Positions 7,926 through 10,634 of a DNA stretch of 64,000 nt are shown piece by piece (within the stretch, counting starts at the first letter, position 1; every line of letters begins with the position of its first letter). The notes under the pieces are model-generated. The model did no database searches. It was given only the letters and a program-made list of their open reading frames with translations, and had not been told where the DNA came from. The DNA is taken from NCBI GenBank assembly GCA_963700145.1, contig OY969474.1, forward strand, positions 1,280,001 to 1,344,000. The letters run 5' to 3'. Origin of the DNA: an uncultured Acidobacteriota bacterium. Lineage in GTDB: Bacteria; Acidobacteriota; Thermoanaerobaculia; Multivoradales; UBA5704. A program made the position numbers and the translations under genes.

Positions 7926-8186
7926 TTAGCACCGGCTGATGCCGCAGGTCACCGGCGGAATGCCCCAGCGGGTCTTGCAACAGGCCTTCCACCGGCCGAA
8001 ATTCGGTATGTTGAAGCACTTGTTACCGAAGAACGGCAGCGTGAAACACTTCCGCCCGCCGCCGACCTGCACGCATGGGGTGCACAGACTTAGCTGGGGC
8101 GCCACACCGGGCTCGCTCCAGGCGGCCGCCCCCGCGAAGGAGCTCATCGACCGGTCCGCGGGCTGAGATTGCGTTGGCATGCGCAT
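7926..8186 (-). CDS. Putative RiPP precursor A (86 aa): 31-aa leader ending GVAPQ plus a 55-aa cationic core with 8 Cys
   Basis: AAGGAG RBS 9 nt before ATG; co-oriented downstream of a PatA-type protease; N-terminus MRMPTQSQPA shared with the neighbouring small ORF. Confidence 0.75.
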   Translation of the reverse strand: MRMPTQSQPADRSMSSFAGAAAWSEPGVAPQLSLCTPCVQVGGGRKCFTLPFFGNKCFNIPNFGRWKACCKTRWGIPPVTCGISRC

Positions 8187-8273
8187 GACTGTGTTCTCCT
8201 TCCTCGTGTGAGGTAGTCCTTTTGGCGCTCGGATTACCGCAGCCGCGATGGGCCTGCGGCCGGTCGCGCCGCG

Positions 8274-8477
8274 TCACTCTCCCGACTCGTCGTACTCTCC
8301 CGACTCGTCGTACTCTCCCGACTCGTCGTACTCTCCCGACTGGCCCCCTTCTTCGCCGTCGTCGTGCTCGTCCTCCGCGCCGTGCGGGAGGACGCCGACC
8401 TGATCGGGGTTCAGGCCGCGCCATGGGCGACGACGGGCGTCGCGGGCCGCTGGCTCCGACTGGGTTGGCGGACGCAT
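8274..8477 (-). CDS. Putative RiPP precursor B (67 aa): leader ending GVLPH plus a polyacidic (SGEYDE)3 core
   Basis: GAAAGGAG RBS 8 nt before ATG at 8477; N-terminus MRPPTQSEPA is 8/10 identical to precursor A. Confidence 0.7.
   Translation of the reverse strand: MRPPTQSEPAARDARRRPWRGLNPDQVGVLPHGAEDEHDDGEEGGQSGEYDESGEYDESGEYDESGE
8277..8341. repeat. 18-bp perfect tandem repeat, about 3.6 copies, coding for SGEYDE
   Basis: ctctcccgactcgtcgta x3 plus a partial copy. Confidence 0.95.
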
Positions 8478-8543
8478 CGTGCCTTCTCCTTTCGGGGTTA
8501 ACCCCGTCCGCACGCCGGGCGGGGCGGAATCAACAACATCGGC

Positions 8544-10634
8544 TCAACGCAAGGCCCACGAGCGGACCGGGCCGACGAGCACGGGAACGACGTCGCTCAC
8601 ATCCACGGTGAAGCGGTACGCCGTCCGGGCGTGGCCGAGCGCGTCCTCGGGATCGAAGAAGATCAAGCGCACGTCCCAGCAGTCGCTGTCAGGACGGCAG
8701 ATGGGGCTGGGCTCAACCCCGATTTCGTCGAGCTGCAGCTTTCTCCTTGCCGCGTTCTCGAAGACTTGCGCAAGATTGAACGCGTTGGTCGCGGCGAAGT
8801 TCAGCGCCCGTTCTTGGGGCGTCTGACCCGTGTTGCGCACCTCGAAGTAGATGCGCTCGAGGAAATCGCGAATCCCTTGGGACTTCGCATCGAATTCCTT
8901 CCTTTGGGCTTCGGTCGCGGGCTTCTTGCCGGCGACTAACGCCACCAGCACGGCGGTCGCCCAGTTGAACATCCCGCGCAACTCGGGGACCAGGACCGGA
9001 ACCGGCTGGCCGGTCAGCAGGGTCACGTTCCCGTCCAGCACCCCCGGGACGCTGACGCGCTCGGCCTTCCCGTCGATCTGATCGGCAAAGAACTCCAGCA
9101 ACCGACCGTACGTCTCGCGCGCGAACGCGCCCTGAGGGCGCAGAGCGTAGATGGGCGTGGCGTCGTGGTTGAGCGTCCACAGGATCGCCGCGGCGAAGTG
9201 GTGATTGCCCTCCCTGCTCACGAACTCGAGCAGGTCGCGCGGGTTGGTGGGGAACTTGCCCTCGTCCATCTCGGCATTGATCGCGTCGAGCCGCGCCTGC
9301 GAGCCGAAGTCGTAGCCGAGTTCGGCAAGAGCGTAGACGAGCCCGCCGCCCTGCTGGCATGCGCAGTCCGACGGGGACAATCCGCGGGACGCGCGCAACG
9401 CGGGTCGCCGACCGGGCATCGCCTGCGCCTGGAGCGCGGAGGGCTCGGTGTTCTCGTCTTCGCTCTCGTCTTCTTCCGGGGCCGAGGCCGTGCCCGGCGC
9501 CGGCGTTGGAGTGGCGCAACCACACGAACAAGACGGGCTCACTCCCTCCGCCGGCCCGGCGTCTACGAGCGCGCCTCTCGGCAGCGGAGATGCAGCGGTG
9601 TTGACCACTTCGCTCATGTCCATCGCTCCTTTCACGTAGAGGTCGAATGCTCGAACTGCATCGACACGCCCGGCGAGGAGCCGCTGGCAGTCGCGCCGAT
9701 CCTCCAGGTCACATGGCGAGACCGAGCGCAGCAGCGCATCGCGCAGATCGCGCGTGTCGCGCGGCGTGAGGCGGTTTCTCCGCGCCAGCCGGGCGCTGAG
9801 TAGGAGCCCTGCCAGCCCGGCGACCAGAGGCGCAGCGCACGAAGTCCCGGTCCGACGCTCGTACCCGCCCCCGGGGACGGCGCCGAGCAGCGACTCGCCC
9901 GGCGCGACCACGCCCTGGCGCAGGTACACCCTGCCGAAGTTGCTGGACTCGCTCGGCGCACCGTGAAGCCCGTGCGCGCCCACCGTCAGGACCGTCGGCA
10001 ACGCGGCCGGGAGATGGAGGCAGTCGCACCCGTCGTTGCCGGCGGCGGCAACGACCAAGACCCCTCGTCGCGCGCATAGCTCGACGGCGCGCACGAGGCG
10101 CCGATCGGCCGTGCCTGCGTGCCCGGGCTGCCCGCTGCTGATGTTGATCACGTGCGCCCCGTAGCCGACGGCGGCTTCGACCGCGCGGGCCAGGTCGCTC
10201 TGCGCGCAGGGGCGGATCGCTCCCGGCAAGGCCGGGTGATCGGAGAAGATCGGGATCACGATCCCGCGGCAACGCGGCGCGACACCCTTCAGCGGCCCAG
10301 CTCCGTGCTGCGCGAAGATTAGGCTGGCGACGTGTGTCCCGTGCCCGCAGGAGCCAGTGCCGGCGCAACGGGACCCGCCGCTCGCCCAGGGCATCGTCAG
10401 TCGGGCACCACCCAGCGACGGGTGCGACACATCGACTGGCCCGTCGAGAACTGCGATGCACACGCGTGCATCGCCCAGGGTCTGACGCCACACGTTCTCG
10501 AGGCCCGGGAGCGGGCAGCCTTCCAGCTCGCCTGCGTGAATGCCCTCCCGCGTTCCAGCGCAAGGCCGGGTGTGCAGAGCCGACTCCCATGAACTCGTCG
10601 CTTCCAAAAGGACCACGCCTCGCCAGTTCGACAA
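8544..10634 (-). CDS. PatA/PatG-family cyanobactin maturation protease (S8 domain plus C-terminal PatG-type DUF), PatA-type
   Basis: Triad AVLDGPVD / HGTHVAS / TGTSCAAP; AAAGNDGCDCLHLPAALP; C-terminal LVYALAELGYDFG, RALNFAATNAF, CRPDSDCWDV, YRFTVDVSDVVPVLVGPVRSW; start codon uncertain. Confidence 0.92.
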   Translation of the reverse strand: MSNWRGVVLLEATSSWESALHTRPCAGTREGIHAGELEGCPLPGLENVWRQTLGDARVCIAVLDGPVDVSHPSLGGARLTMPWASGGSRCAGTGSCGHGTHVASLIFAQHGAGPLKGVAPRCRGIVIPIFSDHPALPGAIRPCAQSDLARAVEAAVGYGAHVINISSGQPGHAGTADRRLVRAVELCARRGVLVVAAAGNDGCDCLHLPAALPTVLTVGAHGLHGAPSESSNFGRVYLRQGVVAPGESLLGAVPGGGYERRTGTSCAAPLVAGLAGLLLSARLARRNRLTPRDTRDLRDALLRSVSPCDLEDRRDCQRLLAGRVDAVRAFDLYVKGAMDMSEVVNTAASPLPRGALVDAGPAEGVSPSCSCGCATPTPAPGTASAPEEDESEDENTEPSALQAQAMPGRRPALRASRGLSPSDCACQQGGGLVYALAELGYDFGSQARLDAINAEMDEGKFPTNPRDLLEFVSREGNHHFAAAILWTLNHDATPIYALRPQGAFARETYGRLLEFFADQIDGKAERVSVPGVLDGNVTLLTGQPVPVLVPELRGMFNWATAVLVALVAGKKPATEAQRKEFDAKSQGIRDFLERIYFEVRNTGQTPQERALNFAATNAFNLAQVFENAARRKLQLDEIGVEPSPICRPDSDCWDVRLIFFDPEDALGHARTAYRFTVDVSDVVPVLVGPVRSWALR

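Follow-up and report, generated by a model that had tools for sequence, protein, structure and literature searches.

We report a three-gene peptide module in the genome of an uncultured soil bacterium of the Acidobacteriota. The module lies in a 64,000-nucleotide (nt) stretch of DNA (assembly GCA_963700145.1, contig OY969474.1, positions 1,280,001 to 1,344,000), here called the window, and positions are those of the window unless a locus name precedes them. It consists of a protease of the cyanobactin PatA type and two small open reading frames (ORFs), ORF A and ORF B. We consider it fairly probable that this protease alone matures both small products: the leaders would be removed by cuts behind Q31 in ORF B and H32 in ORF A, and a basic 55-amino-acid (aa) peptide with four disulfides and an acidic partner would be released with no other dedicated enzyme.

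The genome is a single contig of 5.46 Mb with 71.5% G+C. The three genes are co-oriented on the minus strand and run 5' to 3' from the protease (10634 to 8544) through ORF A (8477 to 8274) to ORF B (8186 to 7926), with spacers of 66 nt between the protease and ORF A and 87 nt between ORF A and ORF B. A first-pass annotation had described the same order, an S8 protease followed by 67-aa and 86-aa ORFs, and the AAGGAG ribosome binding sites that it saw in front of the small ORFs lie 8 and 9 nt before their ATG codons. The features of the module are as follows.

8544 to 10634, minus strand: PatA-type cyanobactin-family S8 protease with a C-terminal domain of unknown function (DUF), 696 aa (TIGR03895)
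9723 to 10466, minus strand: Peptidase_S8 catalytic domain of the protease, residues 57 to 304 (Pfam PF00082, E value 2.8e-29)
9036 to 9338, minus strand: PatG_D part of the cyanobactin DUF, residues 433 to 533 (Pfam PF18047, E value 2.5e-13)
8556 to 8885, minus strand: PatG_C part of the cyanobactin DUF, residues 584 to 693 (Pfam PF18065, E value 1.3e-39)
8486 to 8492, minus strand: ribosome binding site of ORF A, AAAGGAG, 8 nt 5' of the ATG (read from the sequence)
8274 to 8477, minus strand: ORF A, 67 aa from the ATG, with an acidic tail (translation)
8276 to 8341, minus strand: perfect 18-bp tandem repeat, 3.7 copies, coding for S-G-E-Y-D-E, the acidic six-residue unit repeated in the tail of ORF A (TRF)
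8196 to 8201, minus strand: ribosome binding site of ORF B, AAGGAG, 9 nt 5' of the ATG (read from the sequence)
7926 to 8186, minus strand: ORF B, predicted 86-aa precursor (translation and homologues)
8094 to 8186, minus strand: ORF B leader, residues 1 to 31, with the N-terminal tag and GVAPQ (alignment)
7929 to 8093, minus strand: ORF B core, residues 32 to 86, 55 aa, net charge +8, eight cysteines, predicted all-β (alignment and AlphaFold2)

The protease matched the NCBIfam model of PatA/PatG proteins (TIGR03895) with 599.2 bits, against a cut-off of 421.05, over model positions 1 to 605 of 606. Peptidase_S8, PatG_D, and PatG_C, the three profiles against which the first-pass annotation had proposed to check it, all matched. 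The best matches in PDB were PagA (4h6w) and PatA (4h6v, 3zxx, and 3zxy), which aligned from residue 42 or 53 to residues 332 to 350 with E values of 5e-81 to 1e-74, and the alignment over residues 42 to 350 showed no insert of the macrocyclase type. In contrast, the PatG macrocyclase domains (4aks, 4akt, and 4h6x) aligned solely from the catalytic His98 onward, with E values of about 1e-37 (e.g., 8e-38). The segment from D64 to H98 is short, and the earlier assignment to the PatA rather than the PatG type, made from this segment, was borne out. The structure of the PatG DUF (4uvq) aligned to residues 430 to 695 with an E value of 2.7e-53. D64, H98, N200, and S265 were invariant in a 30-sequence alignment of the protease and 29 relatives. 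Because the triad is invariant, and because the whole domain aligns with PatA and PagA while PatG aligns only past the histidine, the protease is, judged by its sequence, a catalytically intact enzyme of the PatA type and not of the PatG type.

The length of the protease is counted from the first in-frame start, a TTG at 10634; the ~10 codons that follow contain alternative GTG and TTG starts, and the true start is uncertain. Its translation has no N-terminal hydrophobic signal, which points to a cytoplasmic protease. Conserved cysteines were also seen at two places. C203 and C205, in an N-D-G-C-D-C-L-H stretch, were both invariant among the 30 relatives. Just before the DUF, in a C-x-C motif (residues ~420 to 430, window ~9350 to 9375), C424 was invariant and C426 was kept in at least 90% of the same relatives. 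Metal binding or a disulfide is possible for these cysteines.

ORF B combines a conserved tag and a conserved site with a sharply different core, and this core recurs behind other leaders. We found 13 homologues of about 86 aa in a large protein collection, with 51 to 71% identity. In a 16-sequence alignment, all eight cysteines, Q31, and P4 were invariant, V28, P9, and M1 were kept in at least 90% of the sequences, and P30 was conserved. The GVAPQ motif ends at residue 31 after a variable stretch, and the composition switches there. The ORF B profile matched 65 cluster representatives at an E value of ≤1e-3 in a library of 1.84 billion representatives. These matches include forms with other, longer N-terminal regions, and the N terminus of one weak match resembled, by eye, a secretion signal. 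AlphaFold2 modeled the core (41 sequences) with six β-strands and a mean predicted local distance difference test (pLDDT) score of 80.0, and Foldseek found no fold relative of this model in PDB (best E value, 2.8). ORF B ends at its last cysteine and has no C-terminal macrocyclization signature.

ORF A is built on the same plan. It starts with the tag M-R-P-P-T-Q-S-E-P-A-A-R, continues with an RRRP stretch, and reaches GVLPH, which ends at residue 32. The composition switches after GVLPH, and the tail that follows has a net charge of -17. The first-pass annotation had noted these shared leader-like N termini, with GVLPH and GVAPQ at residues 32 and 31 and an abrupt change of composition behind them; in line with its observation, the tail of ORF A and the core of ORF B are oppositely charged. 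In an alignment of ORF A from four loci, 14 columns were invariant, including M1, P4, Q6, S7, P9, R12, the RRRP stretch, R20, and G28. The tail sequences, however, were poorly conserved between loci. The repeat in the tail (TRF, 100% matches, score 132) resembles a variable-number repeat, and a related sediment contig (read run X3) lacks exactly one 18-nt unit, an in-frame loss at 8328. Two related loci (L091 and L092) have different acidic repeats at the position of the ORF A tail.

To follow the module through related DNA, we scanned metagenome contigs by pattern and found 26 loci with ORF B relatives, of which 24 were informative (at least 500 bp upstream). The C terminus of a PatA-type protease lay directly upstream of ORF B on the same strand in 17 of these 24. 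The remaining seven are the most divergent. Five of them (L108 to L111 and L113) lie beside more distant S8 and/or PatG_D/PatG_C genes, and the other two (L107 and L112) had no S8 or PatG_D/PatG_C gene within the available contig sequence. When 21 loci were filtered automatically for an acidic tagged ORF no more than 200 nt upstream of ORF B, 16 had one, and two more (L095 and L104) were added by eye to give 18; L098 and L105 had no upstream sequence, and L090 was ambiguous. This acidic ORF, with its own ribosome binding site, stays in place at protease identities down to ~50%. In every pair, the ORF B core was basic (+5 to +10) and the ORF A tail was acidic (-9 to -19). Among the genome loci, the three whose proteases are most similar (57 to 68% identity) have the same three-gene order; they belong to Bryobacterales and Bryobacteraceae metagenome-assembled genomes.

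In six divergent loci (L108 to L113), the ORF B core stands behind a different leader, of the type M-x-L-P-x-F-x-A-E-x-x-L, and the P-Q junction and an acidic companion gene are kept. One core behind several leaders is the pattern expected of a leader/core precursor. In the same loci, two cysteines change position jointly and may be partners in a disulfide, and in one of these loci (L111) the S8 and PatG_D/PatG_C genes look split into two ORFs. A third tagged small-ORF family, with a core of the form G-L-G-D...P-C-x-G-C...L-N-R-W, follows ORF B in several relatives and is missing from the window. Its members are at L001:8630-8818, L089:3441-3632, L091:1491-1700, L096:1501-1689, and L118:1244-1435, and in L012 it lies 256 nt upstream of the protease.

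The indel pattern in contigs from read runs also speaks for the small ORFs. Those of run X1 were 100% identical over eight pieces and may come from the source sample, so they are not independent. Runs X2 and X3 contain relatives at ~85 to 97% identity and were used for the indel pattern only; each difference comes from one contig at a depth below 6 and may be an error. Single-base indels in related contigs at 8194, 8224, 8234, and 8493 fall in spacers, and a -1/+1 pair inside ORF B, 7 nt apart, is compensated.

Both small ORFs start with M-x-x-P-x-Q-S-x-P-A-x-R. We built a hidden Markov model (HMM) of the tag from related loci and scored it on 131,151 small-ORF starts in the bacterium's own genome. 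ORF B ranked first (13.1 bits) and ORF A second (13.0 bits). A chance origin of the two ORFs in high-G+C DNA was rejected on this ranking and on their conservation. The third match, with 11.7 bits, is an Arg/Ser-rich 69-aa ORF (C1:2644449-2644658, plus strand) that looks out of frame and is probably due to chance; a weak S8 match (C1:2647522-2647908) lies ~3 kb from it.

The tag links the module to cyanobactins: M-x-x-P-x-Q-x-x-P-x-x-R is also found at the start of bona fide precursors of cyanobactins and of PatB. The tag regions of related peptides matched cyanobactin precursor models below their curated cut-offs (TIGR03678, E value 0.017, model positions 1 to 19; TIGR04446, E values 3.7e-4 and 0.011; PF19158, E value 7e-4). 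ORF A and ORF B themselves had no match to TIGR03678, TIGR04446, or TIGR04220 at an E value of ≤0.1. In the PatB family, M1, P4, Q6, P8, P9, V10, and R12 of the tag were invariant in eight sequences. An hhalign comparison of ORF B with PatB aligned the first 16 columns alone (P value 0.0016, probability 15.9%). Sub-threshold matches in the ESM Atlas, to a PatB cluster (0.78) and to the DUF5837 cyanobactin class (0.76), are leads only. The second shared element is the site. According to PMC10885120, PatA recognizes G(L/V)E(A/P)S and cuts after it, as the first-pass annotation had stated, and GVAPQ and GVLPH resemble this recognition sequence.

Since PatB starts with the tag of the cyanobactin precursors and the Cys-rich peptides, the comparison suggests that PatB may be recognized, and perhaps cut, by the same protease. 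ORF A occupies the slot of PatB, directly after the protease, and shares its N-terminal motif. Nevertheless, an identity of ORF A with PatB was rejected, because it did not match TIGR04220, a model of 61 positions. With its place, charge, and recurrence in view, ORF A is probably a conserved acidic partner of ORF B. The first-pass annotation had taken the two ORFs as two leader-sharing precursors; the shared tag stands, but ORF A now appears to be more than a second precursor.

We then asked how general the layout is by surveying the window and the 80 genome loci that matched the protease best. Their record titles place these loci in Acidobacteriota, Cyanobacteria, Planctomycetota, Alpha-, Beta-, and Gammaproteobacteria, Actinomycetota, Clostridia, and Bacteroidota; a single Rokubacteria genome and a single archaeal metagenome-assembled genome are also among them. 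A strict tag was defined as a start codon and then P-x-Q-x5-R within the first residues, in ORFs of 30 to 160 aa. On the protease strand, 110 tagged ORFs (0.51 per kb) lay within 3 kb downstream of the proteases, compared with 6 (0.028 per kb) within 3 kb upstream and 14 (0.027 per kb) on the rest of that strand; the other strand had 19 (0.020 per kb). Tagged small ORFs are thus ~20-fold enriched just downstream of proteases. At least one was found there in 60 of the 79 loci that had at least 300 bp of downstream sequence. The 110 ORFs include the two of the window and a few evident false positives.

Within the 110 tagged ORFs, the motif G[VILM]x[PA][SQ] ended at residues 26 to 37 in 51, compared with a mean of 1.96 and a maximum of 7 in 200 shuffles. 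The first-pass annotation had proposed a survey of this kind and had made its reading depend on small ORFs lying beside homologous proteases; they do so at the 60 loci here and in the 17 metagenome contigs above. Pfam assigned none of the 110 to a peptide family. NCBIfam matched 11, of which 8 were PatB/AcyB/McaB (TIGR04220, best E value 1.2e-37) and 3 were weak matches to anacyclamide/piricyclamide precursors. A model of the peptides found here is thus lacking in both databases. The eight PatB-like ORFs lie just 3' of the protease in L044, L056, L059, L062, L067, L069, L077, and L080.

Four or more cysteines were present in 87 of the 110 ORFs, and their number was even in 83 of these 87, mostly 6, 8, or 10. 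Because of this even number and the all-β core modeled with a pLDDT of 80, the ORF B product is probably a folded, disulfide-bonded mini-protein. The first-pass annotation had expected large linear peptides in place of small macrocycles; the product is probably more than a linear chain. The layout of a protease with Cys-rich ORFs occurs in Nostoc, Calothrix, and Rivularia and in about ten other phyla. Hence the layout is not specifically non-cyanobacterial, and a stripping down, as the first-pass annotation had proposed, is one possible direction of its evolution.

The survey also bears on modifying enzymes. The surveyed loci contain 1,284 ORFs with a length of 150 aa or more, all of which we clustered. 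One family was present in 80 loci and was the protease itself, and two clusters were judged, from the coordinates of their representatives, to be antisense ORFs inside the protease gene. No other large neighbor family occurred in more than 6 loci, and those were six syntenic Janthinobacterium genomes. A second protease-like ORF was found in eight surveyed loci. Since no large family occurs in more than 6 of the 80 loci, no tailoring enzyme travels with the module in any lineage sampled. In the window, no tailoring enzyme, thiol oxidoreductase, or exporter was found among nine scanned flanking genes, two of which had no Pfam match. Genome-wide, the assembly (scored 95.43% complete) had no match to YcaO, the tailoring family searched there; radical-SAM and other tailoring families, PatC, and PatF were not searched by family. 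The earlier statement that no modifying enzyme or exporter lies nearby thus agrees with the flanking genes and with the genome-wide YcaO result. It needs amending for PatB, given the position and motif of ORF A.

Taken together, these data fit a simple mechanism. A cytoplasmic PatA-type subtilase would recognize two precursors by the tag M-x-x-P-x-Q-x-x-P-x-x-R and by G-V-x-P-(Q/H) ~30 residues into the chain, and the tag may be a docking signal for the protease or for its DUF. The protease would cut at the ends of the two site motifs. ORF B would then yield a 55-aa basic (+8), all-β peptide, whose eight cysteines would most likely form four disulfides once it is outside the cytoplasm and which may act as a bacteriocin- or defensin-like effector. 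ORF A would yield an acidic (-17), low-complexity peptide, probably a neutralizing, chaperoning, or immunity-like partner of the basic one. Other posttranslational enzymes would take no part.

Several observations weigh against this mechanism. Export is its weakest point: no exporter, signal peptide, or thiol-oxidizing enzyme comes with the genes, though an eight-cysteine peptide would have to reach an oxidizing compartment. The strict site motif is missing in 59 of the 110 tagged ORFs, many of which have relaxed forms. The presumed P1 residue is Q in ORF B and H in ORF A, as opposed to S in the characterized PatA site. PatB bears the same tag and yet is not known as a substrate. That the DUF recognizes the tag is only a guess, because nuclear magnetic resonance detected no binding of the PatE precursor by the PatG DUF, a novel fold (PMC4259220). 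The AlphaFold2 model of full-length ORF B (16 sequences) had a pLDDT of 45.8 and was unusable. ORF A was absent from a collection of 5.8 billion proteins, with nothing at an E value of ≤0.1 among 437 word-sharing candidates, and within ORF A the run X3 contig has lost 1 nt at 8355, for which no compensation was seen. Finally, neither a sigma-70-type promoter nor an intrinsic terminator turned up in a consensus scan of 7700 to 11200.

Three other explanations were considered. The Cys-rich peptide could be a true ribosomally synthesized and posttranslationally modified peptide (RiPP) whose core is acted on by unlinked tailoring enzymes, so that the locus only looks enzyme free. Unclustered RiPP genes are known, for example, the unclustered lanthipeptide proteases reported in PMC8960859, and the invariant cysteines and the lack of an exporter or oxidase at the locus would suit such a peptide. 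However, no co-travelling tailoring enzyme emerged from the neighbor families, YcaO is missing from the genome within the search described above, and the even number of cysteines in 83 of 87 peptides fits pairwise disulfides. We regard this explanation as unlikely, although it is the strongest of the three.

Somewhat less likely still, the small ORFs could be PatB-like accessory or regulatory partners (inhibitors, chaperones, or adaptors, for instance) that bind the protease by the tag while the real substrate is encoded elsewhere. PatB shares the tag and comes directly after the protease, a position that ORF A fills here, and it is described as non-essential and of unknown role in PMC2854353, which places it in nearly all cyanobactin clusters. 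On the other hand, the genome has no other tagged ORF of comparable score; the third HMM match looks out of frame. In addition, a PatA-like site lies at a fixed distance from the tag, with the composition switching exactly there, and three or more unrelated N-terminal regions precede the same core, a leader/core modularity that substrates would be expected to show. It is very improbable that only ORF B is real and that ORF A is a remnant without function or in fast decay, a repeat prone to slippage in a spacer kept open by chance: gene callers do skip it, as its absence from the protein collection indicates, and it has a low-complexity tail with a perfect repeat, little tail conservation, and the 1-nt loss in one related contig, but the acidic tagged ORF with a ribosome binding site persists in 16 of 21 loci (18 by eye), 14 columns are invariant, the group with divergent leaders keeps an acidic companion, and the change in repeat copy number is in frame. 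We keep maturation of both peptides by the protease alone as the most probable reading.

The setting of the module suggests that it was acquired horizontally, because its G+C content dips and the gene is absent from same-genus genomes and rare in relatives. The G+C content is 0.66 to 0.70 across window positions 8001 to 11000, compared with 0.75 to 0.78 in both flanks and 0.715 genome-wide. A PatA-type gene was absent from all four same-genus genomes searched. In 40 relatives, matches reaching the C-terminal DUF region were found in 3 (42 to 52% identity), and weak S8-only matches were found in 2 more; the loci of all 3 carry tagged Cys-rich ORFs. The nearest proteases are those of Bryobacterales metagenome-assembled genomes. 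The 5.46-Mb genome itself has a single TIGR03895 match above the cut-off. Other features around the module are as follows.

10635 to 10740, minus strand: A+T-richer spacer 5' of the protease, putative promoter region (read from the sequence)
6515 to 7792, plus strand: extracytoplasmic function (ECF)-type sigma factor with DUF6596, convergent with ORF B
3675 to 5018, minus strand: secreted repeat protein, borderline match to DUF3466 (24.8 bits against a cut-off of 25.1)

Between the ORF B stop and the convergent sigma factor gene lie only 133 nt. Seven of the nine flanking genes had a Pfam match, to regulatory, repair, or otherwise unrelated families. The matched neighbors are an FHA-GAF-SpoIIE phosphatase, an Ada-AlkA fusion, a DUF2784 protein, an enolase-superfamily enzyme, the secreted repeat protein, the ECF-type sigma factor, and a histidine kinase with its response regulator. 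Neither the secreted repeat protein nor the sigma factor recurs in related loci. A functional tie of the module to the ECF sigma factor, the Ada-AlkA gene, or the two-component genes was rejected, since none recur at related loci. In the closest relative, a 476-aa ORF without a Pfam match (L001:4077-5507, minus strand) is divergent from the protease, and it has no counterpart beside the module of the window.

The enzymes of cyanobactin pathways are in wide use for making peptides. In the classical system, two parts still lack an assigned function: the DUF on PatA and PatG (PMC4259220) and PatB (PMC2854353). Reviews place cyanobactin clusters only in cyanobacteria (PMC4663559, from 2015) and give them two proteases in every case (PMC2854353). 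The spread of the PatA-plus-DUF unit goes far beyond these classical clusters, and its usual company is tagged small genes alone. In the literature searched, we found no description of PatA-only loci with Cys-rich precursors and no paper on the tag in PatB. A bolder and tentative idea, which may well prove wrong, is that these loci encode an unnamed, phylum-spanning class of peptides with a leader peptidase as the sole dedicated enzyme, that the tag, in the form M-x-L-P-x-Q-x-x-P-V-x-R, is the docking signal and missing ligand of the cyanobactin DUF, and that the members here are a basic toxin knotted by disulfides and, from a gene of its own, an acidic partner that neutralizes it. If so, the DUF and PatB would gain a testable function, and a large reservoir of disulfide-rich bacterial peptides would open. 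Confirmation of the module would offer a large family of compact, probably disulfide-rich peptides in Acidobacteriota, Planctomycetota, Proteobacteria, Actinomycetota, Cyanobacteria, and others, a simple model of one protease and two peptides for asking what the tag and the DUF do, and a natural pair of basic and acidic peptides encoded by separate genes.

The closest known system is the cyanobactin pathway. In the classical cluster, as described in PMC4663559 and PMC2854353, tandem proteases A and G act with a short-cassette PatE-type precursor that has N- and C-terminal recognition sequences, and YcaO, a prenyltransferase, an oxidase, and PatB/PatC are encoded as well. Here we found a single TIGR03895 match in the genome, no such precursor, no YcaO, no TIGR04220 match for ORF A or ORF B, and no tailoring enzyme among the seven identified neighbors, and assignment to a classical cluster was rejected for lack of the second protease, the cassette precursor, and the tailoring genes. 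PatA and PagA (4h6v, 3zxx, and 4h6w; TIGR03895) share with our protease the domain order of S8 subtilase, linker, and PatG_D/PatG_C, as well as the conserved triad. However, the protease of the window stands alone, with no PatG partner, heterocyclase, or prenyltransferase found, and its presumed substrates are a 55-aa Cys-rich and a 35-aa acidic peptide instead of cassettes of 6 to 20 residues. The likeness to PatE-type precursors (TIGR03678, TIGR04446, and DUF5840) lies in the N-terminal tag and in a G-hydrophobic-x-(P/A)-(S/Q) site ~30 residues in, similar to recognition sequence II (RSII), whereas ORF B has a single long core with no C-terminal signature and no short cassettes. PatB/AcyB/McaB proteins (TIGR04220) share with the small ORFs the tag and the place directly 3' of the protease, but there is no similarity past the first ~16 residues, and the PatB loci in our set mostly have a second protease-like ORF.

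In its working logic, the module resembles two other kinds of peptide. In class II bacteriocins, a dedicated protease removes the leader and releases an unmodified, often disulfide-bonded cationic peptide. Cationic defensins are made with an anionic pro-piece, an acidic segment that balances the basic mature peptide. The module here differs from the first in its leader and protease of cyanobactin ancestry and in having no C39-ABC exporter, and from the second in that the acidic element is a separate gene product; it has no sequence or fold relation to either. By analogy, the module may work as a bacteriocin system would if it had a leader peptidase as its only enzyme and were made of cyanobactin parts.

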